A stretch of 64,000 bases of DNA from Frankiales bacterium (GCA_025965475.1 JAOPWV010000105.1:320-64319), one strand, 5' to 3'. Positions 24,219 through 41,150 are shown, counted from the first letter of the stretch. The notes: generated by a model from the sequence alone, not told the origin. A program made the numbers and translations.

Positions 24219-24490
24219 CGAGACCCCTTCGATCCGACCTTGGCGCCGGCACGACCTGTGGCGCGGCACCAAGTGTTGCAGCGCCCGCGCACGCCCGAGG
24301 GAACACGCTCGAAACCGGCGCAACAGGGGGCATCCCTCGGACGCCGGACCGGCACCAACACGTACATCCCGGACGGCTACGACGCTCGCGGCGCGGCTGC
24401 CGGCCCGGCATGAATGCGCCTGACCGCCTTCAGCCTGGTCTCGGGGCTGCCCCGGTCGTACCGTGGGCGCGCACTGCCGAGGAGGTTGCC

Positions 24491-25777
24491 ATGGCCGTCC
24501 CCACCGCGCTCGCCGCCGGCATGGTGGATGCGTGCTTCGCGCGCCGGGTCGCTCCCCTCGAACGCCTCGGCGAACACGCCGACCTCGTGGCGCTCGCGGC
24601 CCGGGACGTCGCGGCCCGGCTGGCCCGTGGCGGCCGGCTCCTGCTGTTCGCGGGCGGCGGCGCCACCACCGACGCGGCCCACGTTGCGGTGGAGTTCGTC
24701 CATCCGGTCGGGGTCGGCAAGCCCAGCCTGCCGGCGCTGTCCCTGACGGCCGACGTGGCGAGCCTGCTGGCCACGGCGTCCAGCCACGGGCTCGACCAGG
24801 TCTTCGCCCACCAGGTCCGGCTCATTGGCGGCCCCGACGACGTCGCGGTCGGCCTGTCCGCCGATGGCCGGTCCCCGGCGGTGGCGGCCGGCCTCCGGGC
24901 TGCCCGCGACGCCGGCCTGCTCACCGTGGCCCTGCTCGGCGGGGACGGCGGTGCGATCGCCCGCGATCGCCTCGCCGAGCACTGCCTGGTCAACGGCGCC
25001 CCGGACGCACACCTGGCGAAGGAGGCCCACGTCACGACCTACCACGTCCTGTGGGAGTTGGTGCACGTCTTCCTCGACCATCCCGAGGCAATGACCGACG
25101 CGCCACCACCGGCGGCCGGCGGGGTCGAGCAGCTGTATCCGTTCCTGTACGGCGGCGGGGGCGGGAGCCAGCAGGTGCTCACCGAGGCGGTGGTCTCGAC
25201 CCGGGTGAAGGTCGCCGACGTGCTCGCGCTGCGCCACGAGGTGCTGCAGGAGCAGCGGACCCAGCTGGCCACCTGTGCGGGACGTATGGCCGAGGCCTTC
25301 GACCAGGGCGCGACGCTCCTGGCGTTCGGCAACGGGGGCAGCAGCACCGATGCCCAGGAGCTGACGGCGTCGTTCCTGGCGCCACCGTCCGGACGGCCGC
25401 TGCCGGCGCTCTGCCTCACCAACGACGTGGCGATCGTGACCGCGCTGTCGAACGACATCGGCTTCGACGTGGTCTTCGCGCGGCAGGTCGAGGCGTTCGG
25501 CCGGCCGGGGGACATCGCGGTGGGCCTGTCCACGAGCGGCGGATCGCCGAACGTCCTCGCCGGTCTGCGGACGGCCAAGGAGCGCGGCATGACGACGATC
25601 GGGCTGGCCGGCTATGGCGGTGGCCAGATGGCCACCCTCGGCGCCATCGACCACCTGTTCACCGTGCCGTCGTCCTCCGTGCACCGCGTGCAGGAGGTGC
25701 AGACGACGATCTACCACGTGTTGTGGGAACTCGTTCAGCAGGCGCTGCCGTCCCGGGCGGCCGCCACCGCGACCTGA
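24491..25777 (+). CDS. tandem SIS-domain (GmhA-like sugar-phosphate isomerase fold) protein
   Basis: ATG at 24491 has GGAGG 6 nt upstream. There are two SIS halves. The first is degenerate (LLLFAGGGATTDAAHVAVEF) and the second is canonical-looking (LLAFGNGGSSTDAQELTASF...GLSTSGGSPNV). It converges on hypF and overlaps it by 43 nt. Confidence 0.8.
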   Translation: MAVPTALAAGMVDACFARRVAPLERLGEHADLVALAARDVAARLARGGRLLLFAGGGATTDAAHVAVEFVHPVGVGKPSLPALSLTADVASLLATASSHGLDQVFAHQVRLIGGPDDVAVGLSADGRSPAVAAGLRAARDAGLLTVALLGGDGGAIARDRLAEHCLVNGAPDAHLAKEAHVTTYHVLWELVHVFLDHPEAMTDAPPPAAGGVEQLYPFLYGGGGGSQQVLTEAVVSTRVKVADVLALRHEVLQEQRTQLATCAGRMAEAFDQGATLLAFGNGGSSTDAQELTASFLAPPSGRPLPALCLTNDVAIVTALSNDIGFDVVFARQVEAFGRPGDIAVGLSTSGGSPNVLAGLRTAKERGMTTIGLAGYGGGQMATLGAIDHLFTVPSSSVHRVQEVQTTIYHVLWELVQQALPSRAAATAT

Positions 25778-28023
25778 CCGAGGCTGATACCGCCGTCGTT
25801 GCACGGCACCTGCCGATGCGTGAGCACCTCGAAGCCCGCGCCCTGCAGACCATCGAGGCAGCGGCCGAGGAGCAGGGCGTTCTGGAAGACGCCGCCGGAC
25901 AGGGCCACGACGTCGAGGCCGTGCGCCCCCCGTAGCCGGGAGCAGACGTCGATGACGACGTCCGCCATCGCGTTGTGGAACCGCGCCGCCACGATCGGCA
26001 CCGACGCGCCCGCCAACCGGTCCTGGACCACAGCGCGGACCAGCTCGGCACCCGGCACTTCCAGGATCGGGCCGCCCTGTACGCGCACCGGGTAGCTGCC
26101 CGTCTCACCCTCGTCGGCGCACTGCTCCAGTTCCACGGCCGCCTGCCCCTCGTAGGTCACCGCGTCGCGGAGCCCGAGCACCGCGGCCACCGCGTCGAAC
26201 AGCCGCCCGGCGCTGGAGCTCAGCGGCGCGTTGAGACCGGCCGCCGCCGCGGACAGCACGTGGTCCCAGCGGCGGCCCTGCCGGATCCGTACCTCGAGGG
26301 CCGGTACGTCGGCGCCGTACGCCGCGTCGAGATACGACGCGGCCATCCGCCACGGCTGCCGGGTGGCAGCGTCGCCGCCCGGCAGCGGCACCGGCTGCAG
26401 ATGCGCCACGCGGGTAGCGGTCACCAGGTCGGCGAGGAGGAACTCCCCGCCCCAGAGCGTGCCGTCCTCGCCGAGCCCGCTCCCGTCGAGCGCCACGCCG
26501 ATCACCGGCCCGCGGACCCCGTTGTCCACGAGACACGCGGCGACGTGGGCATGGTGGTGCTGAACGGCAACCCGCTCCACGTCAGGCAACTCCGCGGCAT
26601 AGCGGGTGGATGGGTAGTCCGGATGCAGGTCGTGGGCCACCAGCACGGGCTGCAGGTCGAACAGCCGCCGCAGGTGGTCGATGCCGTCGAGATACGAGCC
26701 GTAGGTGCTGTAGTCGTCGAGGTCGCCGATGTGGTGGGACACGAACGCGTGCCGGCCCCGCGCCAGGCAGAACGTGTTCTTGAGCGACGCACCGCAGCCG
26801 AGCACCGTCCGGCGTGCCTCCAGGGGAAGGGTCAGCGGATCGGGCACATAGCCGCGCGAGCGCCGGATCGGTACGACGCGTCCACGGACCGCGCGCACGA
26901 CGGAGTCGTCCACGCGGGTGCGGATGGGCCGGTCGTGCGTCAGCCAGGCGTCGGCGACGCCGGACAGGCGCTGCAGGGCGTCGCCGTCCTCGTAGGCGAT
27001 CGGCTCGTCGGACCGGTTACCGCTCGTCATCACGAGTGGCCCCCCGACCTCGGCGAGCAACCGATGGTGCAGGGCGGTGTACGGCAGCATCACGCCCAGC
27101 GCCCGCTGGCCCGGCGCGACCGACGGCGCCACCGCAGCCCCGATGCGCCTGCGCAACAGGAGAATCGGCCGCGCGCGCGCCACGAGCAGCTGCTCTTCCC
27201 CGGGGTCGACGTCACACAGCGTCCTGATACCTGGCAGGTCCGCCACCATCAGCGCGAACGGCCGGTCCTCCCGATGCTTGCGCCGGCGCAGGAGGGCAAC
27301 GGCCGCCTCGTCGGCCGCGAGCACGGCGAGATGGAAGCCGCCGAGGCCCTTGACGGCAAGGACCCCGCCGGCCCGCAACAGGTCGGCTGCCCCGCCGAGC
27401 GCGTCCCCCTCGACCGGCTGCCCGTCCGCGTCGAGCAGCGCGAGCCGCGGCCCGCACGCCGGGCAGCACAACGGTTGCGCGTGGAAGCGGCGGTCGCCCG
27501 GATCGTCGTACTCCGCCTGACAGGACGGGCACAGGGGGAAGCCCGCCATGGTCGTGCGCTGCCGGTCGTACGGCACGTCCCGCACGATCGTGTAGCGCGG
27601 GCCGCAGTGCGTGCAGGTGGCGAAGACGTGGCCGAAGCGACGGTCGACCGGGTCGCGGACCTCCGCCAGGCAGGCGTCGCAGGTCGCCGCGTCCGGTGAT
27701 ACCAGGACGTCGCGCGGCCCCGTGCTGTCGCTGAACTGGACCGAGAAGCCGGCCTCCCCGGTCAGCGCCACCTCCCGGCTGCGCACCTGGTCGACCCGGG
27801 CCAGGGGCGGCGCGTCGGTATGCAGGGCGGCCAGCAGCGCCGTGACCGCGGCCGGCGCCCCCTCCACCTCGAGGACGACTCCCGCCGTGTCGTTGCGGAC
27901 GAAGCCTGCCAGCCCGAGGCCGACGGCCTTACGCCAGACGAACGGGCGGAAACCCACGCCCTGGACGATCCCGGTGACATGGGCGCGGGTCCGGACGGGG
28001 GCTCCGCCTTTCAGGTCGTCCAT
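25735..28023 (-). CDS. hypF: [NiFe]-hydrogenase maturation carbamoyltransferase HypF
   Basis: The 762-aa product has an acylphosphatase-like N-terminus (VTGIVQGVGFRPFVWR), zinc-finger CxxC pairs (CDAC...CTHCGPRY...CPSC...CPACGPR), and YrdC-like and Kae1-like C-terminal regions. Confidence 0.95.
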   Translation of the reverse strand: MDDLKGGAPVRTRAHVTGIVQGVGFRPFVWRKAVGLGLAGFVRNDTAGVVLEVEGAPAAVTALLAALHTDAPPLARVDQVRSREVALTGEAGFSVQFSDSTGPRDVLVSPDAATCDACLAEVRDPVDRRFGHVFATCTHCGPRYTIVRDVPYDRQRTTMAGFPLCPSCQAEYDDPGDRRFHAQPLCCPACGPRLALLDADGQPVEGDALGGAADLLRAGGVLAVKGLGGFHLAVLAADEAAVALLRRRKHREDRPFALMVADLPGIRTLCDVDPGEEQLLVARARPILLLRRRIGAAVAPSVAPGQRALGVMLPYTALHHRLLAEVGGPLVMTSGNRSDEPIAYEDGDALQRLSGVADAWLTHDRPIRTRVDDSVVRAVRGRVVPIRRSRGYVPDPLTLPLEARRTVLGCGASLKNTFCLARGRHAFVSHHIGDLDDYSTYGSYLDGIDHLRRLFDLQPVLVAHDLHPDYPSTRYAAELPDVERVAVQHHHAHVAACLVDNGVRGPVIGVALDGSGLGEDGTLWGGEFLLADLVTATRVAHLQPVPLPGGDAATRQPWRMAASYLDAAYGADVPALEVRIRQGRRWDHVLSAAAAGLNAPLSSSAGRLFDAVAAVLGLRDAVTYEGQAAVELEQCADEGETGSYPVRVQGGPILEVPGAELVRAVVQDRLAGASVPIVAARFHNAMADVVIDVCSRLRGAHGLDVVALSGGVFQNALLLGRCLDGLQGAGFEVLTHRQVPCNDGGISLGQVAVAAARDGSAC

Positions 28024-28101: not shown

Positions 28102-28187
28102 AAAACGAAGGCGTGCAAGCAGGTCATCGCGGACCGGACTCGCGCCGTACCGGGGCTGGTGGTCCCAGGCCCCGAGGGGAGGGCCAC

Positions 28188-29243
28188 GTGCCCACTGCTG
28201 AGGCGATCGCAGCGCAAGACACCTTGGTCCACGTTCTCTGGATCAATGCGGGGCTGAGTTGTGACGGCGACTCCGTCGCCCTGACCGGCGCCACCCAGCC
28301 GACCATCGAGGAGATCGCCCTCGGTGCGCTCCCCGGGCTGCCGAACGTCGCCGTGCACTGGCCCCTGATCGACTTCGAGTGCGGGCCCAACGGCGGCCGC
28401 GACGACTTCCTCGAGTGGTTCTGGAAAGCCGACCGCGGGGAACTCGAGCCGTTCGTCCTCGTCGTCGAGGGATCGATCCCGAACGAGACCCTCAAGGAAG
28501 AGGGGTACTGGTGCGGCTTCGGCAACAACCCGATGACCGGCCAGCCCGTCACGACCAGCGAGTGGCTGGACCGGCTGACCCCCAAGGCCTTGGCCGTGCT
28601 GGCCGTCGGCACCTGCGCGACGTACGGCGGCATCCACGCGATGGCCGGCAACCCCACGGGTGCGATGGGCGTGCCCGACTATCTCGGCTGGGACTGGAAG
28701 AGCAAGGCCGGCATCCCGATCGTGTGCGTCCCCGGCTGTCCGGTCCAGGGCGACAACCTGTCCGAGACCATCACGTACCTGCTCTACCAGGCGACCGGGC
28801 AGGCGCCGATGATCCCGTTGGACGAGGAGCTGCGGCCGACCTGGCTGTTCGGCAAGACCGTGCACGAAGGCTGCGACCGGGCCGGCTACTACGAGCAGGG
28901 CGACTTCGCCACGGAGTACGGCTCGCCCAAGTGCATCGTCAAGCTCGGCTGCTGGGGACCGGTCGTGAAGTGCAACGTCCCCAAGCGTGGCTGGATCAAC
29001 GGCGTCGGTGGCTGCCCGAACGTCGGTGGGATCTGCATCGGCTGCACGATGCCGGGCTTCCCCGACAAGTTCATGCCGTTCATGGACGAACCGCCGGGCG
29101 GGAAGCTCTCCACGACGATCATCGGCGGCTACGGCGCCACCATCCGCGCCCTGCGCACCAAGACGACGCAGACGCTGGACAAGGAACCCAAGTGGCGCAG
29201 GCCGGGCGCGCGACTGACCACGGGCGCGACCCGCACCTGGTAG
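28188..29243 (+). CDS. hhyS: [NiFe]-hydrogenase small subunit, group 1h (Hhy) type
   Basis: GTG at 28188 lies in the frame of track ORF 28113..29243, preceded by GAGGGGAGGG. There is no twin-arginine signal peptide. Fe-S cluster cysteines are present: INAGLSCDGDS, VGTCATYGG, VPGCP, HEGCDR and GGCPNVGGICIGC. Confidence 0.9.
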   Translation: MPTAEAIAAQDTLVHVLWINAGLSCDGDSVALTGATQPTIEEIALGALPGLPNVAVHWPLIDFECGPNGGRDDFLEWFWKADRGELEPFVLVVEGSIPNETLKEEGYWCGFGNNPMTGQPVTTSEWLDRLTPKALAVLAVGTCATYGGIHAMAGNPTGAMGVPDYLGWDWKSKAGIPIVCVPGCPVQGDNLSETITYLLYQATGQAPMIPLDEELRPTWLFGKTVHEGCDRAGYYEQGDFATEYGSPKCIVKLGCWGPVVKCNVPKRGWINGVGGCPNVGGICIGCTMPGFPDKFMPFMDEPPGGKLSTTIIGGYGATIRALRTKTTQTLDKEPKWRRPGARLTTGATRTW

Positions 29244-29307: not shown

Positions 29308-31104
29308 ATGACGGACACGCTTCCCCGGACCTCCGACACCGGTGCGGTGGACAAGGGACTCGTCGAGATGGCGTGGGACCCCATCACGCGGATCGTGGGC
29401 AGTCTCGGCATCTACACGAAGGTGGACTTCGCGAACCGGACCGTCGCCGAGTGCCACTCGACGTCGTCGATCTTCCGTGGCTACAGCATCTTCATGAAGG
29501 GCAAGGACCCGCGGGACGCGCACTTCATCACCAGCCGCATCTGCGGGATCTGCGGCGACAACCACGCCACCTGCTCCTGCTACGCCCAGAACATGGCCTA
29601 CGGCGTACGACCGCCGGCGGTCGGCGAGTGGATCGTCAACCTGGGCGAGGCCGCCGAGTACATGTTCGACCACAACATCTTCCAGGAGAACCTGGTCGGG
29701 GTGGACTACTGCGAGCGGATGGTCAAGGAGACCAACCCCGGGGTCCTCGCCCAGGCCGAGAACGCCCTCGCTCCCGGCTCCGCCGCCCACGGCTACCGCA
29801 CGATCGCGGACATCATGCGGGCCCTGAACCCGTTCACCGGCGAGTTCTACCGCGAGGCGCTCCAGGTCAGTCGCATGACGCGGGAGATGTTCTGCCTGAT
29901 GGAGGGCCGGCACGTCCACCCGTCCACGCTCTACCCGGGCGGCGTCGGCACGGTGGCCACCGTTCAGCTGATGACCGACTACCTGACGCGGCTGATGCGG
30001 TACGTCGAGTTCATGAAGAAGGTCGTCCCGATGCACGACGACCTGTTCGACTTCATCTACGAGGCGCTGCCCGGCTACGAGATGGTCGGGAACCGGCGCA
30101 TCCTGCTCGGCTGCTGGGGCTCGTTCCAGGACCCGGACTACTGCAACTTCACCTACCGGGACATGGAGCAGTGGGGCCGCAAGATGTTCGTCACCCCCGG
30201 GGTGGTCGTCGACGGCAAGCTCGTCACGACCAGCCTGGTCGACATCAACCTGGGACTGCGGATCCTGCTCGGCAGCTCGTACTACGACGACTGGAAGGAC
30301 CAGGAGGTCTTCGTCACCCACGACCCGCTGGGCAATCCCGTCGACAAGCGCCACCCGTGGAACCAGCACACCAACCCGCATCCGCAGAAGCGCGACCTGG
30401 ACGGCAACTACAGCTGGGTGATGTCCCCACGGTGGTACGACGGCAAGGACTACCTCGCCCTCGACACGGGGGGCGGCCCGCTCGCCCGGATGTGGTCGAC
30501 AGCGCTGGCCAACCTGGTCGACATCGGCTACGTGCGGTCGACCGGCCACAGCGTGGAGATCAACCTACCGAAGACGGCCCTCAAGGGACCGGTGAGCTTC
30601 GAGTGGAAGATCCCGCAGTGGAGCAACACCCTGGAACGCAACAGGGCGCGCACCTACTTCCAGGCCTACGCGGCAGCGATGGCACTGCACTTCACCGAGA
30701 AGGCACTGGCGGAGATCCGGGCCGGCCGCACGAAGACCTGGGAGACGTTCGACGTGCCCGAGGAAGCGGTCAGCTGCGGCTTCACCGAGGCCGTCCGCGG
30801 CGTCCTGTCGCATCACATGGTCATCCGGGACGGCAAGATCGCGAACTACCACCCGTACCCGCCGACGCCCTGGAACGCCAGCCCGCGGGACAGCTACGGC
30901 ACACCCGGTCCCTATGAGGACGCGGTGCAGGACCAGCCGCTGTTCGAGGAGAACGACCGGGAGAACTTCAAGGGCATCGACATCATGCGGACCGTCCGCA
31001 GTTTCGACCCCTGCCTGCCCTGCGGCGTCCACATGTACCTGGGCAAGGGCAAGACCCTGAAGAAGGTCCACTCGCCGACGATGGCCGGCACGGGCGAGGA
31101 GTGA
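29308..31104 (+). CDS. hhyL: [NiFe]-hydrogenase large subunit, group 1h (Hhy) type
   Basis: The N-terminal metal-site motif is TSRICGICGDNH. The C-terminal motif is SFDPCLPCGVH, followed by a 23-aa tail MYLGKGKTLKKVHSPTMAGTGEE. A GGGAGA ribosome-binding site precedes the ATG. Confidence 0.95.
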   Translation: MTDTLPRTSDTGAVDKGLVEMAWDPITRIVGSLGIYTKVDFANRTVAECHSTSSIFRGYSIFMKGKDPRDAHFITSRICGICGDNHATCSCYAQNMAYGVRPPAVGEWIVNLGEAAEYMFDHNIFQENLVGVDYCERMVKETNPGVLAQAENALAPGSAAHGYRTIADIMRALNPFTGEFYREALQVSRMTREMFCLMEGRHVHPSTLYPGGVGTVATVQLMTDYLTRLMRYVEFMKKVVPMHDDLFDFIYEALPGYEMVGNRRILLGCWGSFQDPDYCNFTYRDMEQWGRKMFVTPGVVVDGKLVTTSLVDINLGLRILLGSSYYDDWKDQEVFVTHDPLGNPVDKRHPWNQHTNPHPQKRDLDGNYSWVMSPRWYDGKDYLALDTGGGPLARMWSTALANLVDIGYVRSTGHSVEINLPKTALKGPVSFEWKIPQWSNTLERNRARTYFQAYAAAMALHFTEKALAEIRAGRTKTWETFDVPEEAVSCGFTEAVRGVLSHHMVIRDGKIANYHPYPPTPWNASPRDSYGTPGPYEDAVQDQPLFEENDRENFKGIDIMRTVRSFDPCLPCGVHMYLGKGKTLKKVHSPTMAGTGEE

Positions 31105-32003
31105 CCGATCCCGCGGCTTCCGGCCGTCGCATCGAGCAGCTACTCGAGGCGAGTGCCGCCGCCGGACCCGCCGCCCGGGAGCGGGCGGAGGAGCTCGTGC
31201 GCCTGGTCGTGGATCTCTACGGCGCAGGCCTCGAGCGGCTGCTCGACATCGCGTACGAGTGCGGCGCGCTCACCGAGGACCTGCTCGCCGCTCTGGCCGC
31301 CGACGACCTGGTGTCGAGCCTGCTGCTCGTGCACGGCCTGCACCCGTATCCGGTGGAGGAGCGCGTGGAGCAGGCGCTGCGCGACGTACGGCCGTATCTG
31401 GGCTCCCACGGGGGTGACGTCCGCCTGCTCGAGGTCACCGGCGACGGCGTCGTACGGCTCGCGCTGCTGGGCAGCTGTGACGGGTGCCCCTCGTCGTCGG
31501 TGACGCTCTCGCTCGCCGTGGACGGGGCGGTACGCGCCGCCGCGCCGGAGGTGGTGCGCATCGACGTGGAGGAGGGCGTCGCTGACGGCAGTACCGCCGG
31601 CACCGTCATCCCGGTCGGCTCGCTGACCGCCAGGCTGCGGGCAGAGGCCCCGCCAGGGACGTGGGCAGACGTCGCCGCCGTGTCGGCACTTCCGGTTGGC
31701 AGCCTCGAGCCGGCGAGGGCCGCGGGGCTGGCGATCGCGCTGTGCCGTCTCGGCGACACCGTGTACGCCTACCTCGACGCCTGCCCGTCCTGCGGCGCCG
31801 CGTTGGTCGGGGCGCGCGTGGAACGGGCCCTCGGCTCCCCGGTCGGGACGGCGGTTCTCGCCTGCGCGCGCTGCCACGAGCACTTCGACGTCACGCACGC
31901 CGGCGCAGGCGTCGAGCAGCCGGCCCACCACCTGGAGCCGCTCCCCCTGCTGGTGCGGGACGGACGGGTCGAGGTCGCCGTACCGTCGGCGGTGCCGGCA
32001 TGA
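31101..32003 (+). CDS. hydrogenase-associated putative Fe-S protein (NifU-like domain + C-terminal Cys-rich domain)
   Basis: GTG at 31101 overlaps the hhyL stop (GTGA). The NifU-C-like block is HGGDVRLLEVTGDGVVRLALLGSCDGCPSS. The C-terminal half has CRLGD...LDACPSCG...LACARCHEHFD. Confidence 0.75.
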   Translation: MTDPAASGRRIEQLLEASAAAGPAARERAEELVRLVVDLYGAGLERLLDIAYECGALTEDLLAALAADDLVSSLLLVHGLHPYPVEERVEQALRDVRPYLGSHGGDVRLLEVTGDGVVRLALLGSCDGCPSSSVTLSLAVDGAVRAAAPEVVRIDVEEGVADGSTAGTVIPVGSLTARLRAEAPPGTWADVAAVSALPVGSLEPARAAGLAIALCRLGDTVYAYLDACPSCGAALVGARVERALGSPVGTAVLACARCHEHFDVTHAGAGVEQPAHHLEPLPLLVRDGRVEVAVPSAVPA

Positions 32004-32626
32004 ACAACGCCACGCTCGGGGTCCTCGCGCGGATCCGGGCCGATCGGCCGACAGCCACGCCGGGCGAGCGCTGCGAGATGTGTGCCGCGCCGATCGCGGA
32101 CGCGCACTCCCACGTCGTGAACCTCGGCAGCCGCTCGCTGCTGTGCACCTGCCGGGCCTGCTACCTGTTGTTCACCCACGATGACGCCACCCTGTCCTAT
32201 CGGGCGGTGCCGGACCGCTACCTGTCGTTCCCGGCGCTGGCGCCGGCGGTCTGGGACGAGCTGCAACTGCCGGTGGGCACCGCGTTCCTGTTCCTGAACT
32301 CCCACCTCGAGCGCATCGTGGCCTTCTATCCCGGACCAGCCGGGGCGACGGAGTCGGACCTCCCCCTCGAGGCCTGGGGCCGCGTGGTGGCGGCCGCCCC
32401 GTCGCTCTCCGCCCTGCGGCCGGACGTGGAGGCGGTCCTGGTCCGCGCCACCGGCCAGGACATCGCCTGCTTCCTCGTCCCGATCGACGTCTGCTACGAG
32501 CTGGTCGGCCACCTGCGGCGGCTGTGGCGCGGCTTCGACGGCGGGCAGGACGTACGCCGCCGGCTCGACGAGTTCTTCGCCGGCATCGCCGCGCGGAGCA
32601 AGCCGGCACCGGAGCACCAGCCGTGA
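32000..32626 (+). CDS. conserved hydrogenase-cluster protein of unknown function (N-terminal Cys cluster)
   Basis: ATG at 32000 overlaps the upstream stop (ATGA), in the frame of track ORF 31661..32626. The N-terminus has CEMCAAPIADAHSHVV...LLCTCRACYLLF. Confidence 0.75.
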   Translation: MNNATLGVLARIRADRPTATPGERCEMCAAPIADAHSHVVNLGSRSLLCTCRACYLLFTHDDATLSYRAVPDRYLSFPALAPAVWDELQLPVGTAFLFLNSHLERIVAFYPGPAGATESDLPLEAWGRVVAAAPSLSALRPDVEAVLVRATGQDIACFLVPIDVCYELVGHLRRLWRGFDGGQDVRRRLDEFFAGIAARSKPAPEHQP

Positions 32627-33261
32627 CCGAACTGGCCTTCACGGTGCTCGACGTGCAGCCGCAGGCGCACGCCGCGGCGCCGCACATGCTCTTCCGGCTG
32701 CGCGTCACCGAGAGCAGCGGTGCGTGCGTGCACGCCATGGCATTGCGCTGCCAGCTGCGGATCGAGCCGCAGCGCCGGGCCTACGAGCCACGGGAGCAGG
32801 CCGGACTCGAGGACCTGTTCGGCACCGCCGAGCGCTGGGGCCAGACGGCGAAGCCGTTCCTGTGGACCCATGCCTCGACGATGGTGCGCGGCTTCGAGGG
32901 CAGTCACGAGTTCGACCTGCCCGTGGCCTGCACCTACGACTTCGAGGTCAGCGGCACGAAATACCTGCATGCGCTGGCCGGCGGCGAGGTCCCCCTGGTC
33001 CTGCTGTTCAGCGGGACCGTGTTCACCCGCGGCGCGACCGGCTTCGCCGTCGAGCAGCTGTCCTGGTCCCTGGAGGCGGACACCCGGATGCCGGTGCGGG
33101 TGTGGCGGGACCTGATGGACCTGTACTTCCCGAACAGCGGCTGGATCCGCCTGGACCGGGACACCCTGGACGCGCTGCTCCGCTACAAGGCCTCGCGGGC
33201 ACTCACCTCGTGGGAGCAGGCCCTCGACCAGCTGCTGCCGGCCGAGGAGCGCGTGTCATGA
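32623..33261 (+). CDS. conserved hydrogenase-cluster protein of unknown function
   Basis: GTG at 32623 overlaps the upstream stop (GTGA), in the frame of track ORF 32524..33261. The composition is protein-like (VTELAFTVLDVQPQAHAAAPHMLFRLRVTE...). Confidence 0.7.
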   Translation: MTELAFTVLDVQPQAHAAAPHMLFRLRVTESSGACVHAMALRCQLRIEPQRRAYEPREQAGLEDLFGTAERWGQTAKPFLWTHASTMVRGFEGSHEFDLPVACTYDFEVSGTKYLHALAGGEVPLVLLFSGTVFTRGATGFAVEQLSWSLEADTRMPVRVWRDLMDLYFPNSGWIRLDRDTLDALLRYKASRALTSWEQALDQLLPAEERVS

Positions 33262-34625
33262 GCCTCACCGCGGCCCGCCGCGTCGCCGACGCCGTCCTGT
33301 ACGAGGGCTACCTGCTCTACCCCTACCGGGCATCGTCGCCGAAGAACCAGCTGCGCTGGCAGTTCGGGATCCTGGGCCCGGCCGGCGCCGTGCAGGCCGG
33401 CGTGGGCGAGGAGCCGTCGATGCGTGCCCAATGCCTGCTCGACAGCCCGGACGCCTCGGGGCGGCTCGACGTGCAGCTGCGTTTCCTGCAGGTGCAGGCG
33501 CGGACCGTCGAACGCCGTGACGGCGGCCAGTACGTCGGTGTGGAGGAGCTCGACGTCGCCGGCACGCGGTGGATCGGCTGGCACGAGGCCGTCGAGCGGG
33601 AGGTGCCGGTCCTCGACGTGCCGGTGGCCGACCTGCTCACCGGCCGGACCGTGACCGTGGCCGTGCCGGGCGGTGAGGAGTGCGAACTGCTCCACGACGG
33701 GGCGGACGTGGTGGGCCGGCTCGTCCGCAGGCGCTGGCCCCTGCAGGCAGAGCTGTTCCTGACCGCCCGACGCGGGATCGACCCCCGACTGCTGGTCGTC
33801 TCTGTCGCCGTCGACAACGAGACGGTCTGGCCAGGCGAGGGTGCGCCGGCGCCGGCTGCCTCGCCGCGCGATGTCGCTGCCCGGGGCTCGTTCATCGGGA
33901 CCCACCTGCTGCTGGCCGCCCGGGGGGCGGAGTTCGTCTCGCTGCTGGACGGGCCGCAGTGGTCCGCGGACGACGCCGCGGCCTGCGTGCAGTCACGGTG
34001 CTGGCCGGTGCTCGTGCTGGACGACCAGGGCCGGGACGCGGTCCTGGTCTCGCCCATCATCCTGGCCGAACGGCCGGTCGTCGCACCGGAGAGCGCCGGC
34101 GACCTGTTCGACGCCACCGAGATCGACGAGATCCTGACCTTGCGCATCATGACCATGACGGACGAGGAGAAGGCGGACGCGCGCGGCACGGACCCCCGCG
34201 CCGCCGCGATCATCGACCGTTGCGACGACATGACCCCGGCGGGCCTGAAGCGGCTGCACGGTACACGCCGCTCGACCGACGATGAGCCGGACCGAGAGAG
34301 GGTTCCGTGGTGGGACCCGGGATCGGACGCCTCCGTCTCCCCCGGCACGGACGCGGTGGACATCGCCGGCACCGCCGTCGCGAAGGGCAGCCGCGTGCTG
34401 CTGCGGCCGACGCGTCGGGCGGATGCCCAGGACCTGTTCCTCGCCGGGATGGTCGGCGTCGTCACCGCCGTCTACGCCGACGTCGACGGCGGGACGCATG
34501 TGGCGGTGGTGCTGGAGGACGATCCGGCGAGCGACCTGCACGAGTGGTACGGGCGCTACTACTACTTCGGACCGGATGAACTCGAACCGCTCCCGGCGCG
34601 CACCTCGACCGGACCGCAGCCATGA
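33258..34625 (+). CDS. conserved hydrogenase-cluster protein of unknown function (455 aa)
   Basis: ATG at 33258 overlaps the upstream stop (ATGA), in the frame of track ORF 32724..34625. The product begins MSLTAARRVADAVLYEGYLLYPYRASSPKNQLRWQFG. I recognise no catalytic motif. Confidence 0.75.
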   Translation: MSLTAARRVADAVLYEGYLLYPYRASSPKNQLRWQFGILGPAGAVQAGVGEEPSMRAQCLLDSPDASGRLDVQLRFLQVQARTVERRDGGQYVGVEELDVAGTRWIGWHEAVEREVPVLDVPVADLLTGRTVTVAVPGGEECELLHDGADVVGRLVRRRWPLQAELFLTARRGIDPRLLVVSVAVDNETVWPGEGAPAPAASPRDVAARGSFIGTHLLLAARGAEFVSLLDGPQWSADDAAACVQSRCWPVLVLDDQGRDAVLVSPIILAERPVVAPESAGDLFDATEIDEILTLRIMTMTDEEKADARGTDPRAAAIIDRCDDMTPAGLKRLHGTRRSTDDEPDRERVPWWDPGSDASVSPGTDAVDIAGTAVAKGSRVLLRPTRRADAQDLFLAGMVGVVTAVYADVDGGTHVAVVLEDDPASDLHEWYGRYYYFGPDELEPLPARTSTGPQP

Positions 34626-35131
34626 CCGCCCGGGTACTCGTCGCCGGCGTCGGCAACATCTTCCTGCGCGACGACGGGTTCGGCTGCGAGGCGGCACGGC
34701 GTCTCACGGCCCGGGAGCTGCCGGACGGCGTGCGCGTCGTCGACTACGGCATCCGCGGCATGCACCTGGCCTACGACCTGCTTGACGGGTACGACGCGCT
34801 CGTCGTCCTCGACGCGCTCCCCCGTGGCGGTCAGCCGGGCGACCTCGTCGTCCTGCAGGTCGGTCCCGAGGACCTGGGCGACGCCGAACTCGACGCGCAC
34901 GGGATGGAGCCCACCGCCGTACTCGCCAGCCTGTCGTGGCTCGGCGGCCAGCTGCCGCCGACGTACGTCGTCGGCTGTGAGCCGGCGGATATCTCGGAGG
35001 GCATGGGTCTGTCGCCTCCGGTCGAGGGCGCAGTCGACGCCGCGGTCGAGCTGGCCCGGCGCCTCCTGGACGACGAACTCACCCGCCTGCCCGGCCGGGC
35101 CGACGCAACCACGAGAAAGGACCGCACATGA
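34622..35131 (+). CDS. hydrogenase maturation endopeptidase (HupD/HyaD/HybD family)
   Basis: ATG at 34622 overlaps the upstream stop. The product contains VLVAGVGNIFLRDDGFG...VVDYG...LVVLDA...DAHGM, typical of large-subunit C-terminal proteases. Confidence 0.9.
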   Translation: MTARVLVAGVGNIFLRDDGFGCEAARRLTARELPDGVRVVDYGIRGMHLAYDLLDGYDALVVLDALPRGGQPGDLVVLQVGPEDLGDAELDAHGMEPTAVLASLSWLGGQLPPTYVVGCEPADISEGMGLSPPVEGAVDAAVELARRLLDDELTRLPGRADATTRKDRT

Positions 35132-35247
35132 GGACCATCGGCGTGATCACCGTCGCCGTCGGCGCCGTGGGGGTGGCTTTCGGAGCCCTGCTCGTGGTGC
35201 GCTCCATCCCGGACATCCAGCGCTACCTGCGCATCCGATCGATGTAG
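35128..35247 (+). CDS. 39-aa single-pass membrane micro-protein (absent from ORF track)
   Basis: ATG at 35128 overlaps the protease stop (ATGA). Hand translation gives MRTIGVITVAVGAVGVAFGALLVVRSIPDIQRYLRIRSM, ending at TAG 35245..35247. It has one hydrophobic helix followed by a basic tail, and high GC3. Confidence 0.55.
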   Translation: MRTIGVITVAVGAVGVAFGALLVVRSIPDIQRYLRIRSM

Positions 35248-35256
35248 GCCGGCGTC

Positions 35257-35664
35257 GTGCACGAGATCGGTTACTGCGAAGGCGTCGTCGAGGCGGTCGT
35301 ACGACGGGCTGCCGGCCGCCCGGTGGCCCGGATCGGTGTGCGCATCGGCGCCCTGCACCGCATCGTGCCCGACGCGTTCGCCCAGTCGTTCCAGCTGGTG
35401 GCGGGTGGTACCAGCGCCGAGGACGCCGTCACCGAGCTCGTCGTCGTACCCGCCCAGGCGACCTGCCGCGGGTGCGGTGCCGTCTTCGAGACGCCCGACC
35501 CCTCAGCGGTCTGCCCGGACTGCGGAGATCTCGACGTCACCGTCACGGGAGGCGACGAGGTCGTCCTGGAATGGGTCGAGTACGCCGACGCCGCGGCCGC
35601 GGAGCAACCGGACGAACGGGTGCCCGCCCATACCCACCAGCACTCGCCAGCCGGAGGTCGATAG
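35257..35664 (+). CDS. hypA: hydrogenase nickel-insertion protein HypA
   Basis: A GTG start gives an M-H-E N-terminus, the Ni-binding motif. The zinc site is CRGCG-x12-CPDCG. An unusual C-terminal tail contains PAHTHQHSPAGG. Confidence 0.9.
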   Translation: MHEIGYCEGVVEAVVRRAAGRPVARIGVRIGALHRIVPDAFAQSFQLVAGGTSAEDAVTELVVVPAQATCRGCGAVFETPDPSAVCPDCGDLDVTVTGGDEVVLEWVEYADAAAAEQPDERVPAHTHQHSPAGGR

Positions 35665-35666
35665 CC

Positions 35667-35942
35667 GTGTGCCTCGCCATCCCCGGGCAGATCGTCCAGC
35701 TGCTGCCGGGCAACAGCGATCAACTCGCCCTCGTCGACGTGGTCGGCGTGAAACGCCGGATCAACATCGGCCTCCTGGAGGAGGGCGGTGCGAAGGTCGG
35801 GGACTGGGTCCTCATCCACGTCGGCTTCGCGATGTCCGTGGTCGACGAGCGCGAGGCGGCAGAGGCCCTGTCGATGCTGGAGATGATGGGCAAGACCTTC
35901 ACCGACGAGCTGCAGGCCGTCGCCGAGTCGAGCATCCCGTGA
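35667..35942 (+). CDS. hypC: hydrogenase assembly chaperone HypC
   Basis: GTG at 35667 gives an (M)CLAIPGQIV N-terminus with the essential Cys2. It lies in the frame of track ORF 34782..35942. Confidence 0.9.
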   Translation: MCLAIPGQIVQLLPGNSDQLALVDVVGVKRRINIGLLEEGGAKVGDWVLIHVGFAMSVVDEREAAEALSMLEMMGKTFTDELQAVAESSIP

Positions 35943-36178
35943 CCGATCCGTCGTCGAGCTGCGCGACCGGCCCTGGCTGCATCACCTGCGGCGACGTGGC
36001 GTTGCCGCTGACGGTGGTCGAGGTCACCGGCCCGGACGCCCGGTGCCGCACCGACGACGGCCGGGAGGAATTGGTGGCCACCGAACTCGTCGGCGTCGTC
36101 GCGGCCGGCGACGTCTTGCTGGTGCACGCCGGCGTCGCTCTCGAACACCTTGCCCGGCGGAACGGGGAGTCCCCATGA
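35939..36178 (+). CDS. second HypC/HupF-like chaperone with Cys-rich N-terminal extension
   Basis: GTG at 35939 overlaps the hypC stop (GTGA). The product is VTDPSSSCATGPGCITCGDVALPLTVVEV...GDVLLVHAGVALE, a HypC-like barrel sequence with C-x5-C-x2-C in place of the N-terminal MC motif. Confidence 0.7.
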   Translation: MTDPSSSCATGPGCITCGDVALPLTVVEVTGPDARCRTDDGREELVATELVGVVAAGDVLLVHAGVALEHLARRNGESP

Positions 36179-37308
36179 CCATGCGCTTCGTCGACGAGTT
36201 CCGCGACCCCGAGTTGGCCGCGGTGCTGGGTCGGGAGATCACAGCCCTGTGCGAGCCGGGCCGGCACTACAAGGTGATGGAGGTGTGCGGCGGGCACACG
36301 CACACGATCTACCGGTACGGCGTGCAGGACCACCTGCCCGACGACATCGAGCTCGTGCACGGGCCGGGCTGCCCCGTCTGCGTGATCCCGATGGGACGGG
36401 TCGACGACGGCATCGCCATCGCCGAGCAGGACGGCGTCATCCTCACCTGCTTCGGTGACATGATGCGGGTCCCCGGCGGCAACGGCTCGTTCCTCGACGC
36501 GAACGCCCGTGGCGCGGACATCCGGATGGTCTACTCGCCGCTCGACGCGCTGCGCATCGCCCGCGACAACCCGGGACGGCAGGTCGTCTTCTACGCCATC
36601 GGCTTCGAGACGACGGCACCGTCGACCGCCCTGACCGTGCTGCGCGCGAAGAAGGAGGGGGTCAGCAACTTCTCCGTCTTCTGCAACCACGTGACGATCA
36701 TCCCCGCCATCAAGGCCATCCTGGACTCCCCCGACCTGCGGCTGGACGCCTTCATCGGGCCGGGGCACGTCTCCACGGTCATCGGCTGCCGGCCCTACGA
36801 GTTCATCCCCCGGCAGCACGGCAAGCCGCTCGTCTGCGGCGGCTTCGAACCGCTGGACCTGCTGCAGTCGGTCTACATGATCATGAGGCAGTTGGCCGAG
36901 GGCCGGGCCGAGGTGGAGAACCAGTACACCCGCGTCGTGGCCTACGACGGCAACCCGGTCGCACTGAAGGTGCTGGCCGAGGTGTTCTCGCTGCGGCCGT
37001 ACTTCGAGTGGCGCGGCCTCGGTTCGATCTCCTCCTCCGCGCTGCAGCTGTCCGAGCGGTATGCCGAGTACGACGCCGAGCTGCGCTACGACGTCCCGGG
37101 CCTGCGCGTCGCCGACCCCAAGGCGTGCCAGTGCGGCGAGGTGCTCAAGGGCGTCCTCAAGCCGTGGGAGTGCAAGGTCTTCGGTACGGCGTGCACGCCG
37201 GAGACCCCCATCGGCACCTGCATGGTCTCCAGCGAAGGCGCGTGCGCGGCGTACTACAACTACGGCCGCTACGCGAAGCAGCGGCTCCACCTGGAGATCG
37301 CGACATGA
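36175..37308 (+). CDS. hypD: hydrogenase maturation protein HypD
   Basis: ATG at 36175 overlaps the upstream stop. Motifs are MEVCGGHTH, GPGCPVCV, FETTAP and the C-terminal cysteines CQCGEVLKG...CKVFGTACTPE...CMVSSEGAC. Confidence 0.95.
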   Translation: MTMRFVDEFRDPELAAVLGREITALCEPGRHYKVMEVCGGHTHTIYRYGVQDHLPDDIELVHGPGCPVCVIPMGRVDDGIAIAEQDGVILTCFGDMMRVPGGNGSFLDANARGADIRMVYSPLDALRIARDNPGRQVVFYAIGFETTAPSTALTVLRAKKEGVSNFSVFCNHVTIIPAIKAILDSPDLRLDAFIGPGHVSTVIGCRPYEFIPRQHGKPLVCGGFEPLDLLQSVYMIMRQLAEGRAEVENQYTRVVAYDGNPVALKVLAEVFSLRPYFEWRGLGSISSSALQLSERYAEYDAELRYDVPGLRVADPKACQCGEVLKGVLKPWECKVFGTACTPETPIGTCMVSSEGACAAYYNYGRYAKQRLHLEIAT

Positions 37309-38387
37309 CCAGGCAGATCACCGAGGACCAGGTCGGCGAGCGGATCGAGGCGATCCGGCGGCGGCCCCAGCGCTTCCGCGACGAGCGGGTGACCATGGCG
37401 CACGGCGCCGGCGGAAAGGCGTCGCGGGCGCTCGTGGAGGGCCTGATCGTGCCGCTGCTCGACAACCCGGCACTGGCCGCGCTGTCCGACGCCGCGTCGA
37501 TCGACGTCGGGCAGGAGCGGCTCGCCTTCACGACCGACGCCTTCGTCGTACGCCCGATCTCCTTCCCCGGCGGCTCCATCGGCGAGCTCGCCGTCAACGG
37601 CACGATCAACGACCTGGCGGTCTCCGGAGCCCGCCCCGTGGCACTGTCGGCAGCCCTGATCCTCGAGGAGGGATTGTCCGCGGAGGTCCTGTCCGCCCAG
37701 GTCGAGGCGATGGCCCGGGCCGCCCGGACCGCAGGCGTGCCGGTGGTCGCCGGCGACACGAAGGTCGTCGAACGGGGCAAGTGCGACCAGATGTACATCG
37801 TGACGACCGGCGTCGGCGTCGTCGCGCCGGAGACGCAACTCGCGGCCGACCGGGTACGGGCGGGCGACAAGGTGCTGGTGTCGGGGACCATCGGCGACCA
37901 CGGCGTGGCGATCATGCTCGCCCGTGGCGAACTGGACATCGAGGCGGACGTGCACAGCGACACCCGATCCCTGTGGGACCTGGTGCGTGAGGTCCTCGCG
38001 CGCTGCGGCACCGGCGTCCACTGCATGCGTGACGCGACCCGGGGCGGGGTGGCGACGGTGCTCAACGAGATCGCCATGGCGGCCGAGGTCGGCGTCGTGA
38101 TCGCCGAGGAGCGCGTCCCGCTCCGGCCGGAGGTGATGGGGGCGGGCGAGATCCTGGGCATCGACCCGCTGTACGTCGCGAACGAGGGCAAGCTGGTGGC
38201 GTTCGTGGCGCCGGAGCACGCGGACGCCGCGCTGGCCGCGATGCGCGCGACGCCGGCCGGTGAACAGGCCGCGATCATCGGCGAGGTCCGGGACGAGCCA
38301 CCGGGCCGGGTTCTCGGCCGCACCGGCTTCGGCGGCCACCGCATGATCGACATGCTGGTCGGCGACCCGCTGCCGCGGATCTGCTGA
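37305..38387 (+). CDS. hypE: hydrogenase maturation protein HypE
   Basis: ATG at 37305 overlaps the hypD stop. It has an AIR-synthase-like fold (MAHGAGG, NDLAVSGA) and the diagnostic C-terminal ...DPLPRIC. Confidence 0.95.
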   Translation: MTRQITEDQVGERIEAIRRRPQRFRDERVTMAHGAGGKASRALVEGLIVPLLDNPALAALSDAASIDVGQERLAFTTDAFVVRPISFPGGSIGELAVNGTINDLAVSGARPVALSAALILEEGLSAEVLSAQVEAMARAARTAGVPVVAGDTKVVERGKCDQMYIVTTGVGVVAPETQLAADRVRAGDKVLVSGTIGDHGVAIMLARGELDIEADVHSDTRSLWDLVREVLARCGTGVHCMRDATRGGVATVLNEIAMAAEVGVVIAEERVPLRPEVMGAGEILGIDPLYVANEGKLVAFVAPEHADAALAAMRATPAGEQAAIIGEVRDEPPGRVLGRTGFGGHRMIDMLVGDPLPRIC

Positions 38388-38401
38388 CTGGAGGCGTCAG
38401 C
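38383..38401. terminator. short hairpin GCTGAC-N7-GTCAGC built from two convergent stop codons
   Basis: GCTGAC (38383..38388) pairs with GTCAGC (38396..38401). It contains the hypE TGA and the TGA of the minus-strand gene. There is no U-tract. Confidence 0.2.
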
Positions 38402-38909
38402 CGATGACCGCGAGCCCGGCGTCGGTGAGCACCCGCTCGTCCTTCTCGGTCCGCAGCAGAGGCTGCGGGCCCCGGTAGAGGGCCGCGAGGCCGGCCGGCG
38501 CGATGCCGAGTTCCCGCGCGGTCTGATGCAGCTCCAGCTTGTGCATACGCCCGCCTGCGGCGGACACCCGCCGCAGCAGGTTCCCGACCTGCGCACCGTC
38601 CGGGCCGGCCGACTCCTGGGGCTCCGCATCGGCGAGCAGCGCGTCGATCTGGCGCTGGAGCCCACGCAGCGCGAACCGAAGCCGGGTCGCCTCGTCGAGC
38701 TCCTGCGGCGCGTCGCCCGCGCCCTGCCAGGTCCGCTTGGGGTGCCGGCGCAGGTACTCCTGCTCCAGCTCCAGCATGCGCTCCGTGTGCCGGGCGTACT
38801 GCTCGGCCGTGCCGTGCAGGAAGACCCAGTTGCGCGTGGCATGCGCGTGCGTCCCCTGCTGCTCCAGCTCCTCGTCCGACAGCTCGCGGGCAGGCCGTCC
38901 CTCGCTCAT
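38397..38909 (-). CDS. hypothetical protein (acidic N-terminus, last gene of box operon)
   Basis: The 170-aa ORF has a start that overlaps the amidohydrolase stop (ATGA). The product begins MSEGRPARELSDEELEQQGTHAHATRNWVFLHGTAEQYARHTERMLELEQEYLRRHP. I cannot assign a function. Confidence 0.6.
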   Translation of the reverse strand: MSEGRPARELSDEELEQQGTHAHATRNWVFLHGTAEQYARHTERMLELEQEYLRRHPKRTWQGAGDAPQELDEATRLRFALRGLQRQIDALLADAEPQESAGPDGAQVGNLLRRVSAAGGRMHKLELHQTARELGIAPAGLAALYRGPQPLLRTEKDERVLTDAGLAVIG

Positions 38910-40117: not shown

Positions 40118-40129
40118 GGGTACTCCGGG

Positions 40130-41146: not shown

Positions 41147-41150
41147 CGCG

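Follow-up and report, generated by a model that had tools for sequence, protein, structure and literature searches.

A conserved gene block between hhyL and the endopeptidase gene is a candidate assembly module for group 1h [NiFe]-hydrogenase

Introduction

Group 1h [NiFe]-hydrogenases are a main biological sink for atmospheric H2 and sustain dormant soil bacteria. The purified and crystallized actinobacterial-type hydrogenase (AH) of Cupriavidus necator (5AA5) consists of the small and large subunits only and is active with dyes. In C. necator and in Mycobacterium smegmatis, the genes for the large subunit and for the maturation endopeptidase are separated by four genes (PHG066-069 and MSMEG_2718-2715, respectively), and PHG066-069 are described in the literature as four open reading frames (ORFs) "of unknown function." Here, we present an analysis of the same four families, which occur in the same order and between the same two genes, in a 64,000-nucleotide stretch of high-GC DNA (about 70-77% GC) from a Frankiales bacterium (GCA_025965475.1, JAOPWV010000105.1:320-64319), hereafter referred to as the window. 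This analysis follows up an earlier note, made from the sequence alone, in which the four genes (ORF1 to ORF4) were singled out. We suggest, with moderate confidence, that these genes belong to a module for the maturation and assembly of the hydrogenase.

Islam, Cordero and Greening (Islam et al. 2019) described HhyE and HucE as putative iron-sulfur (Fe-S) proteins and proposed HhyE as an electron relay; the earlier note had pointed to such a proposed relay protein beside the mycobacterial Hhy genes, which is correct. Deletion of hhyE in M. smegmatis abolishes Hhy activity, including the activity detected in nitroblue tetrazolium (NBT) zymograms, and Islam et al. 2019 favored the relay function for HhyE, yet stated that a role in assembly is equally compatible. 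They also cite native gels on which HhyE co-localizes with HhyS and HhyL, and their supplement lists many truncated HhyE proteins, including that of Streptomyces avermitilis, a proven atmospheric H2 oxidizer. In addition, MSMEG_2717 was reported to be homologous to PHG067, which, as cited in Islam et al. 2019, Schafer et al. proposed to be an electron acceptor. Induction of the AH hydrogenase and hyp genes is accompanied by that of PHG066, PHG067, and PHG070. Otherwise, DUF5947, DUF6084, and DUF6893, the families to which ORF2, ORF3, and a further small gene of the block belong, are essentially absent from the searchable literature.

Three other systems provide points of comparison. The accessory set of the O2-tolerant, membrane-bound group 1d enzymes, HoxL/O/Q/R/T/V (HupF/G/H/I/J/K), includes a small Cys4 iron protein, the rubredoxin HoxR, which is comparable in principle to a C-terminal 4-Cys domain in ORF1; however, this set has no sequence relationship to ORF1-4 (hhalign probabilities <8%), and group 1h enzymes have no twin-arginine translocation (Tat) signal peptide to which HoxO/Q-type chaperones could bind. 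In the cyanobacterial "extended hyp operon" (asr0689-alr0693), a gene for a NifU-like protein and genes for proteins with protein-interaction domains lie between group 2a hupSL and hyp, and the NifU-like genes beside hupSL have been proposed to encode small-subunit maturation factors; the partners in this operon are TPR and NHL proteins, however, and not DUF5947, DUF6084, or ORF4. Finally, HucM of the group 2a hydrogenase Huc is non-catalytic, is encoded together with an atmospheric-H2 hydrogenase, and solves the membrane/quinone contact, while ORF1-4, unlike HucM, show no sign of quinone or membrane binding.

Results

ORF1-4 are coupled to hhyL and the endopeptidase gene by start/stop overlaps

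The four ORFs are present on the + strand of the window at the positions given in the earlier note, i.e., ORF1 at 31101..32003 (300 amino acids [aa], GTG start), ORF2 at 32000..32626 (208 aa, ATG start), ORF3 at 32623..33261 (212 aa, GTG start), and ORF4 at 33258..34625 (455 aa, ATG start). They are preceded by hhyL (29308..31104, +), which encodes the large subunit, and followed by a gene for a HupD/HycI-type hydrogenase maturation endopeptidase (34622..35131, +; Pfam HycI; NCBIfam hydrogenase maturation protease, E=2e-36). As the earlier note had claimed, ORF1-4 are overlap-coupled to both flanking genes: all five junctions from hhyL to the protease gene are 4-bp start/stop overlaps (hhyL/ORF1, GTGA; ORF1/ORF2, ATGA; ORF2/ORF3, GTGA; ORF3/ORF4, ATGA; and ORF4/protease, ATGA). 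The third-position GC content in the four frames is 0.89-0.95, which is similar to that of hhyL (0.95) and shows that ORF1-4 are coding. The occurrence of the four ORFs is far beyond chance; they are real, and their location and description are correct.

The closest solved relative of HhyL is HofG (5AA5), with 1077 bits in the PDB search versus 162 bits for the runner-up, and the two proteins are 77% identical. By sequence, the large subunit of this locus is placed nearest to the characterized group 1h enzymes (former group 5, "actinobacterial-type"). Upstream of hhyL lies hhyS (28113..29243, +; Pfam Oxidored_q6 and NiFe_hyd_SSU_C; the start codon is uncertain and possibly downstream of 28113), which encodes a small subunit with 79-91% identity to those from 79 actinobacterial loci. 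The mature chain of HofG in 5AA5 stops at HhyL residue 575, and residues 576-598 of HhyL (MYLGKGKTLKKVHSPTMAGTGEE; window 31033..31104) form the 23-residue C-terminal extension that is cleaved by the endopeptidase, an enzyme that acts a single time, on the large-subunit precursor loaded with nickel. In this extension, the motif MY[LV]GxGKxLxxxH[ST]P is kept in 167 loci from several phyla; this unusually strong conservation suggests that the extension is specifically recognized.

The gene block is conserved among group 1h loci

An HhyL-anchored genome scan gave 80 loci, all from Actinomycetota, with HhyL proteins that are 81-88% identical to that of the window, and conservation outside this phylum was assessed in plasmids and metagenomes. 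The order hhyS-hhyL-ORF1-ORF2-ORF3-ORF4-protease is present in 79 of the 79 complete actinobacterial loci, while the 80th locus ends at a contig edge; the accessory proteins are 41-71% identical to those of the window. Among 78 loci, the 4-bp overlap is kept at the ORF1/2 junction in 46, at ORF2/3 in 56, and at ORF3/4 in 67. A second scan, of metagenomes and anchored on proteobacterial HofG, also gave 80 loci; among those with enough downstream DNA, ORF1 was present in 68 of 69, ORF2 in 54 of 56, ORF3 in 49 of 50, ORF4 in 40 of 41, and the protease gene in 38 of 39. The block order also recurs in C. necator pHG1, in Methylocystis parvus, and in six further contexts, including those of three of the most distant ORF4 relatives among the matches listed (39-40% identity), which have the same neighbors. 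In two loci (L131 and L140), the block is split around hhySL. The earlier note had named a lack of conservation of the four genes in other group 1h loci as an observation that would speak against it, and these counts point the other way.

In pHG1, genes for the small subunit, the large subunit, a NifU family protein, a DUF5947 protein, a DUF6084 protein, a 476-aa hypothetical protein, and the protease are followed by hyp genes, and this order corresponds to PHG064-PHG070. By its sequences, the block in the window is, accordingly, identified as another instance of the already known PHG066-069 of C. necator and MSMEG_2718-2715 of M. smegmatis and not as a new system. The earlier description of the block as the least understood unit of the window is fair in that the genes are poorly understood, but the gene set is already in the literature.

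Gene fusions connect the accessory proteins with each other and with the endopeptidase

In seven representatives of separate 50%-identity clusters, ORF4 is fused to a complete, C-terminal HycI protease domain. The junctions are short and in frame, e.g., ...PEEIEPL-ARS-VLVAGIGNIFLGDDGFG, and because the closest relatives are unfused, these ORF4::protease fusions arose independently and repeatedly. Two of them were confirmed in DNA as called genes in the expected context. P0259 should be viewed with caution, because its linker covers the DUF6893 gene, read in a different frame; the junctions of the other fusions are clean. Two independent assemblies contain P0357, in which DUF6084 is fused to ORF4, and, in the same locus, a 375-aa protein encoded after hhyL (L086:3035-4162) that combines the N-terminal domain of ORF1 with DUF5947; its first ~100 residues match the ORF1 domain (39% identity, E=1e-10), and the remainder is DUF5947. 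As evidence of the Rosetta-stone type, the accepted fusions (ORF1-ORF2, ORF3-ORF4, and ORF4-endopeptidase) would place ORF3 and ORF4 at or near the endopeptidase step.

Approximately 50 DUF5947::DUF6084 "fusions" from ENA assemblies were set aside as frameshift artifacts because, in most of them, the linkers are Arg/Pro-rich and out of frame and the domains are truncated; one such chain, P0392, was used solely as a target for structure prediction. Many apparent multi-domain fusions of hhy accessory proteins in long-contig ENA metagenome-assembled genomes (P0390-P0496; L037:12481-14067; L066:13993-16011) show linkers and truncated domains of this kind and are probably caused by indel-induced frameshifts at or near the 4-bp overlaps, which calls for caution in Rosetta-stone inference.

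ORF1 is an HhyE homologue with lineage-specific Fe-S ligands

ORF1 consists of three parts. The N-terminal helical domain (aa 1-88; window 31101..31364) contains R46, D68, the motif H78-x-L-H81-P82, and R88, and has no Pfam relative and no relative among all PDB chains in a profile search. It is followed by a NifU domain (aa 89-154; Pfam PF01106, E=9e-20, 71 bits versus a cut-off of 27) with a CxxC motif (C126/C129), and by an optional 4-Cys domain with a Rieske-like fold (aa 187-292; Rieske_2, 22.3 bits, under the cut-off of 27) with the ligands C228, C231, C255, and C258. The NifU CxxC and the ACPSCG...CARCHEHFD region pointed out in the earlier note are, therefore, both present. NifU domains were the only matches of the ORF1 profile in the PDB. 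A Rieske [2Fe-2S] protein was ruled out for the 4-Cys domain based on the sub-cut-off score, the CxxC...CxxC ligands, and the lack of the His pair (the Rieske pattern is CxH...CxxH).

ORF1 shares with HhyE as described by Islam et al. 2019 its place directly after hhyL, the NifU-like CxxC, and the two C-terminal CxxC motifs, and by sequence we identify it as an HhyE homologue. Compared with the published account, two aspects differ: the N-terminal helical domain, which is the invariant part of the family, is not discussed there, and the Cys motifs prove to be lineage specific. Among 79 actinobacterial sequences, 65 have all ligands, 7 have the CxxC only, and 7, all from Micromonosporaceae, have none; among 69 metagenomic sequences, 5 have all ligands, 12 have the CxxC only, and 52 lack the CxxC, most of the latter having an H-x-C variant and five being without any Cys. 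The 4-Cys domain is absent from S. avermitilis HhyE according to the supplement of Islam et al. 2019, and C. necator PHG066 is short (192 aa) and has neither ligand set, whereas ORF1 of the window is the long form with both. The CxxC is, therefore, not kept family-wide as in Nfu/NifU-type proteins but is lost in 7 of 79 actinobacterial sequences, in 52 of 69 metagenomic sequences, and in PHG066. In contrast, R46, D68, H78, H81, P82, and R88 are kept in 79 of 79 actinobacterial HhyE proteins; in metagenomic HhyE, position 78 is usually Tyr and position 46 sometimes Lys, while D68, H81, P82, and R88 persist. The universal function of ORF1 cannot depend on the Fe-S ligands and must, therefore, reside in the N-terminal helical domain.

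ORF2 has eight invariant Cys and His residues

ORF2 is a DUF5947 protein similar to PHG067 and MSMEG_2717 (Pfam E=3e-70; 235.8 bits versus a threshold of 25; profile positions 1-176 of 177), in which an N-terminal Cys/His-rich knuckle region precedes an alpha/beta domain. It opens with the CEMC...CTCRAC motif described in the earlier note. C25, C28, H36, H38, C49, C51, C54, and C165, i.e., the pattern CxxC-x7-HxH-x10-CxCxxC...C, are invariant in 80 actinobacterial sequences, and the same eight ligands are identical in C. necator PHG067, in Methylocystis, and in divergent metagenomic loci (all eight in 54 of 61 metagenomic sequences, the remaining 7 being cut by contig ends). The motif fits no described cluster signature. 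No Fer2, Fer4, or other redox family match was found for ORF2-4 in Pfam and NCBIfam, and searches of all PDB chains with sequences and profiles gave no relative of ORF2, ORF3, or ORF4.

P0392, which carries DUF5947 and DUF6084 in one chain, was modeled with AlphaFold (predicted local distance difference test [pLDDT] 88; predicted template modeling score [pTM] 0.57). In the DUF5947 half, short beta-hairpins hold the Cys/His ligands and are followed by the alpha/beta domain; this half gave no informative Foldseek match. Based on sequence and secondary structure only, the C25/C28 knuckle and C51/C54 at the start of a helix may form a treble-clef-like Cys4 site, in which case H36, H38, C49, and C165 would remain for a second site. 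ORF2 is, thus, predicted to hold the only universal metal site of the block, and this putative metal protein may have an electron-transfer role.

ORF3 and ORF4 have no invariant redox ligands

ORF3 is a PHG068-like DUF6084 protein (Pfam E=6e-92; 307.4 bits versus a threshold of 25; profile positions 1-210 of 213) with no invariant Cys or His. The DUF6084 half of the P0392 model is an Ig-like/arrestin-like beta-sandwich with C-terminal helices; the sandwich matches returned by Foldseek were generic and uninformative. At a pTM of 0.57, the inter-domain geometry of P0392 is uninterpretable and provides no reliable ORF2-ORF3 interface.

ORF4 belongs, by homology to PHG069 (38% identity, E=1e-59, 96% coverage) and by synteny, to a PHG069-like family without a Pfam model, and it has no match in Pfam, NCBIfam, or PDB sequences. 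The family comprises at least 8000 clusters at 90% identity; among 50%-identity representatives, 3845 relatives were found at E<=1e-3 and 949 at E<=1e-30. In a diverse alignment, R33, N187, H216, E288, L293, E304, H334, D389, and D392, and no Cys, are invariant. In the AlphaFold2 model (pLDDT 91, pTM 0.77), an N-terminal helix and a conserved extended segment are followed by a large all-beta domain, a helical bundle, and a small C-terminal SH3-like barrel (aa ~366-445). Using Foldseek against the PDB, only the C-terminal ~80 residues matched, namely to SH3-like barrels including PetP (template modeling [TM] score 0.62-0.75), BAH domains, and the C terminus of the nitrile hydratase beta subunit; no relative of the whole chain was found in the PDB, and DrmA and herpesvirus gB were rejected as whole-chain relatives (TM <=0.21; root mean square deviation >20 Å).

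All four proteins are acidic, and none has a transmembrane-like segment. Comparison of their profiles with those of HoxM/L/O/Q/R/T/V/Z, HypA, HypC, and HypX using hhalign gave probabilities below 8% throughout. Judged from these sequence features, electron transfer by ORF3 and ORF4 can be excluded in practice.

A small membrane peptide is encoded in the operon

Directly after the protease gene, the window contains a gene (35128..35247, +) for a 39-aa DUF6893 peptide with a single transmembrane segment (MRTIGVITVAVGAVGVAFGALLVVRSIPDIQRYLRIRSM; tail ...SIPDIQRYLRIRSM-stop; Pfam E=3e-12, 46.7 bits versus a threshold of 24.6). Its start overlaps the protease stop codon (ATGA), and it is the fifth overlap-coupled gene of the block, which the earlier note overlooked. 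A hidden Markov model (HMM) built from the loci detected DUF6893 in 79 of 79 complete actinobacterial loci, in most of which, in contrast to the window, it lies directly after ORF4 and accounts for the apparent ORF4-protease gaps. The gene is also present but unannotated in C. necator pHG1 (L082, ending at 11097), and it was detected in only 14 of 36 metagenomic loci, for which the actinobacterial bias of the HMM may account. We found no mention of the DUF6893 peptide in the literature. None of ORF1-4 is HoxZ-like according to hhalign or contains a transmembrane segment, yet this conserved transmembrane peptide is encoded in the operon; its sequence makes it a candidate for tethering to the membrane a hydrogenase that has been described as anchorless.

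The YceI family binds polyisoprenoids and quinones. A YceI-like gene (PF04264) lies within 1.2 kb after the protease gene in 27 of 38 eligible metagenomic loci (L094-L170) and is also present in L078-L080, L085:4361-4873, and L141:11722-12324; none was found in the window, and the gene is absent from most Actinobacteria. The DUF6893 peptide and the YceI-like protein appear to be better candidates for the membrane/quinone contact than ORF1-4.

Hyp genes and other neighbors

Downstream of the DUF6893 gene, the + strand contains hypA (35257..35664; Pfam HypA), hypC (about 35667..35942; Pfam HupF_HypC), a second HypC/HupF-like gene (about 35939..36178; Pfam HupF_HypC), hypD (36172..37308; Pfam HypD), and hypE (37305..38387; Pfam AIRS/AIRS_C). 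The second of the two consecutive HypC/HupF family proteins has a CITCGD N-terminal region, and the pair recalls the HypC plus HoxL/HupF pairs of aerobic hydrogenases. hypF (25735..28023, -; Pfam and NCBIfam) lies upstream of and divergent from the hydrogenase genes, and beside it a gene (24410..25777, +; Pfam and NCBIfam) encodes a tandem double SIS-domain protein resembling GmhA/DiaA. SIS-domain genes occur inside group 1h hyp clusters in 32 of 80 actinobacterial loci, in pHG1, in Methylocystis, and in L084 and L088, and hypF recurs in related loci. A tblastn search of all 64 kb with HypB3 of C. necator (E<=1e-3) detected no hypB homologue. The window differs from the C. necator and M. smegmatis loci in having DUF6893 after the protease gene, a divergent hypF upstream, and no hypB within 64 kb. 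In 72 of 80 actinobacterial loci, hypA-hypB lie directly upstream of hhyS, while hypA of the window is instead downstream of the protease gene. A scan for promoters and terminators gave no promoters and one terminator-like site on the opposite strand, which is uninformative.

Farther away, the window encodes a 1565-aa regulator near the hydrogenase cluster (19626..24323, -) with HATPase_c_2 (anti-sigma-kinase-like), several GAF, PAS, and SpoIIE/PP2C phosphatase domains; a DUF6158 protein (38397..38909), whose gene lies between hypE and the following pair; and, about 1.4 kb past hypE, a 111-aa 4Fe-4S ferredoxin next to an FAD-dependent pyridine-nucleotide-disulfide oxidoreductase resembling ferredoxin-NADP reductase (39782..41209, -).

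As for small-subunit genes elsewhere, the HofK proteins (group 1h small subunits) of C. necator pHG1 (L082:4205-5260) and Methylocystis parvus (L083:4302-5381) are both wrongly annotated in RefSeq as "hydrogenase expression protein HypE," by which automated surveys could be misled. Two loci contain additional stand-alone genes of the hydrogenase small-subunit type (L084:4777-8092 and L141:2649-3731): in L084, one such gene precedes that of a PAS/HisKA/HATPase/response-regulator hybrid kinase, an arrangement that may serve H2 sensing, and in L141, the gene is a second hhyS copy upstream.

Discussion

Our analyses lead us to favor, with moderate confidence, a module dedicated to the maturation and assembly of the oxygen-insensitive group 1h [NiFe]-hydrogenase, the co-translated members of which would be ORF1-ORF4, the adjacent endopeptidase, and the DUF6893 peptide. 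The module would fill the role that HoxLOQRTV/HupGHIJK have for group 1d enzymes without being homologous to them. We infer the substrates of the individual proteins and the order of events as follows. ORF3, with its beta-sandwich, and ORF4, with its new fold and SH3-like barrel, would act as a non-redox chaperone pair that holds the HhyL precursor, possibly by gripping the conserved 23-residue C-terminal extension, and that either presents the precursor to the endopeptidase or works alongside it. ORF1 and ORF2 would be the metal-side pair: ORF2 may contribute its treble-clef-like CxxC...CxCxxC site plus the HxH and C165, and ORF1 may dock by its invariant N-terminal domain. In lineages such as that of the window, ORF1 would add the Nfu-type CxxC Fe-S carrier and the 4-Cys Rieske-fold domains, which may supply the HhyS clusters or protect them in air.

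An electron relay is the published hypothesis for HhyE and PHG067. In a relay chain of this kind, the Fe-S clusters of HhyE (ORF1) and/or DUF5947 (ORF2) would take electrons from the distal cluster of HhyS toward menaquinone, with ORF3 and ORF4 as adaptors. The NifU CxxC and the two further CxxC pairs in the Rieske-like fold of the window ORF1, the ORF2 ligand pattern that is invariant across phyla, the reported co-localization of HhyE with HhySL on native gels, and the fact that group 1h loci encode no cytochrome b and that no ORF resembles HoxZ are consistent with such a chain. However, NBT-linked activity is also lost in the hhyE deletion mutant, which is unexpected if solely a downstream acceptor were missing, and most homologues from outside Actinobacteria, 14 of 79 actinobacterial proteins, and PHG066, the partner of the characterized C. 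necator enzyme, have lost or changed the ORF1 ligands, while the 4-Cys domain is missing in S. avermitilis. Moreover, ORF3 and ORF4 have no cofactor ligands, ORF1-4 have no membrane segment, and ORF4-protease fusions are hard to square with a stable respiratory subunit. We, therefore, consider a relay chain unlikely. The earlier note had listed electron transfer, quinone coupling, and assembly as candidate functions of the four proteins. Among these, assembly has gained support from the fusions and ligand patterns; electron transfer has become less likely for ORF1, can in practice be excluded for ORF3 and ORF4, and is possible for ORF2; and quinone coupling finds no support in ORF1-4.

Alternatively, ORF3, ORF4, and DUF6893 could be stoichiometric, non-catalytic subunits that join Hhy into oligomers and hold it at the membrane, in the manner of HucM in the group 2a enzyme Huc. 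Huc needs a scaffold of this kind, the beta-sandwich of ORF3 and the SH3-like barrel of ORF4 are typical protein-binding modules, the ORF4 barrel resembles PetP, which is a peripheral subunit of cytochrome b6f, and translational coupling ties the conserved single-transmembrane peptide to the block. We regard this scaffold or tether as still less probable than a relay. Several points speak against it: on native gels, Hhy of M. smegmatis migrates at a low molecular weight; no protein other than the two subunits is present in purified and crystallized AH of C. necator; sequence identity is much lower among the fast-evolving accessory proteins (30-60%) than for HhyL (77-88%); and the protease fusions point to a transient step. 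Least probable, and in our opinion improbable altogether, is that the proteins do not build the enzyme but preserve its activity in air once it is mature, by re-metallation or cluster repair, or control this activity. The enzyme does work for long periods in full air in dormant cells, repair could be the task of an Nfu-type domain and of a rubredoxin-like 4-Cys site, and some loci add a glutaredoxin (L088); however, no sensor or regulatory domain was found in ORF1-4 using Pfam and NCBIfam, and the tight coupling to an endopeptidase that acts once argues for biogenesis.

Several observations made us favor the maturation/assembly module over the relay. The ORF4::protease, ORF3::ORF4, and ORF1-N::ORF2 fusions connect the proteins with each other and with the endopeptidase; ORF3 and ORF4 have neither invariant redox ligands nor a membrane segment; the Cys ligands of ORF1 are dispensable in many lineages; and synteny and translational coupling hold across loci. 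In addition, the lack of HhyE abolishes even NBT-linked activity, PHG066, PHG067, and PHG070 are co-induced with the hydrogenase and hyp genes, NifU-like proteins have been proposed as maturation factors in cyanobacteria, and purified AH has two subunits.

Other points weigh against the assembly module. hhyE is the only gene of the block that has been studied experimentally, and the co-localization of HhyE with HhyS and HhyL would also fit a stable subunit. Neighboring genes that are translationally coupled can become fused, and stay so, even if their products have no mechanism in common. The eight invariant Cys/His residues of ORF2 could bind a redox-active Fe-S cluster, in line with the proposal by Schafer et al., as cited in Islam et al. 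2019, of PHG067 as an electron acceptor. Because no homology of ORF1-4 to known maturation factors was found (hhalign <8%; no PDB relatives of ORF2-4), the assignment rests on context and not on family. Finally, L141 has neither ORF4 nor the protease gene within 16 kb, and in L084, DUF5947 is followed directly by ORF4::protease, with DUF6084 apparently missing.

A more far-reaching proposal, which we put forward tentatively and consider possible rather than probable, is that DUF5947, DUF6084, the PHG069-like protein, and DUF6893 constitute an unrecognized maturation pathway of independent origin that is specific to the atmospheric-H2 (group 1h) enzymes. In this proposal, ORF4 would be a new-fold chaperone that docks the HhyL precursor to the endopeptidase, and ORF2 would be a new Cys6His2 metalloprotein that acts as a novel metallochaperone or else is the first electron acceptor of Hhy, which has long been sought.

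An understanding of how the oxygen-insensitive group 1h hydrogenases are put together in the presence of air, and of how their electrons reach the respiratory chain, would remove an obstacle to heterologous production of these enzymes for H2-from-air catalysis. The existence of these genes is no surprise to specialists; rather, the gain lies in sharper, testable hypotheses and in an overlooked membrane peptide. Our survey narrows these hypotheses in that ORF3 and ORF4 are predicted to be non-redox partners of the endopeptidase, the Fe-S ligands of ORF1 are not universal, and ORF2 would have the sole universal metal site. Each of these points is directly testable in M. smegmatis or C. necator.

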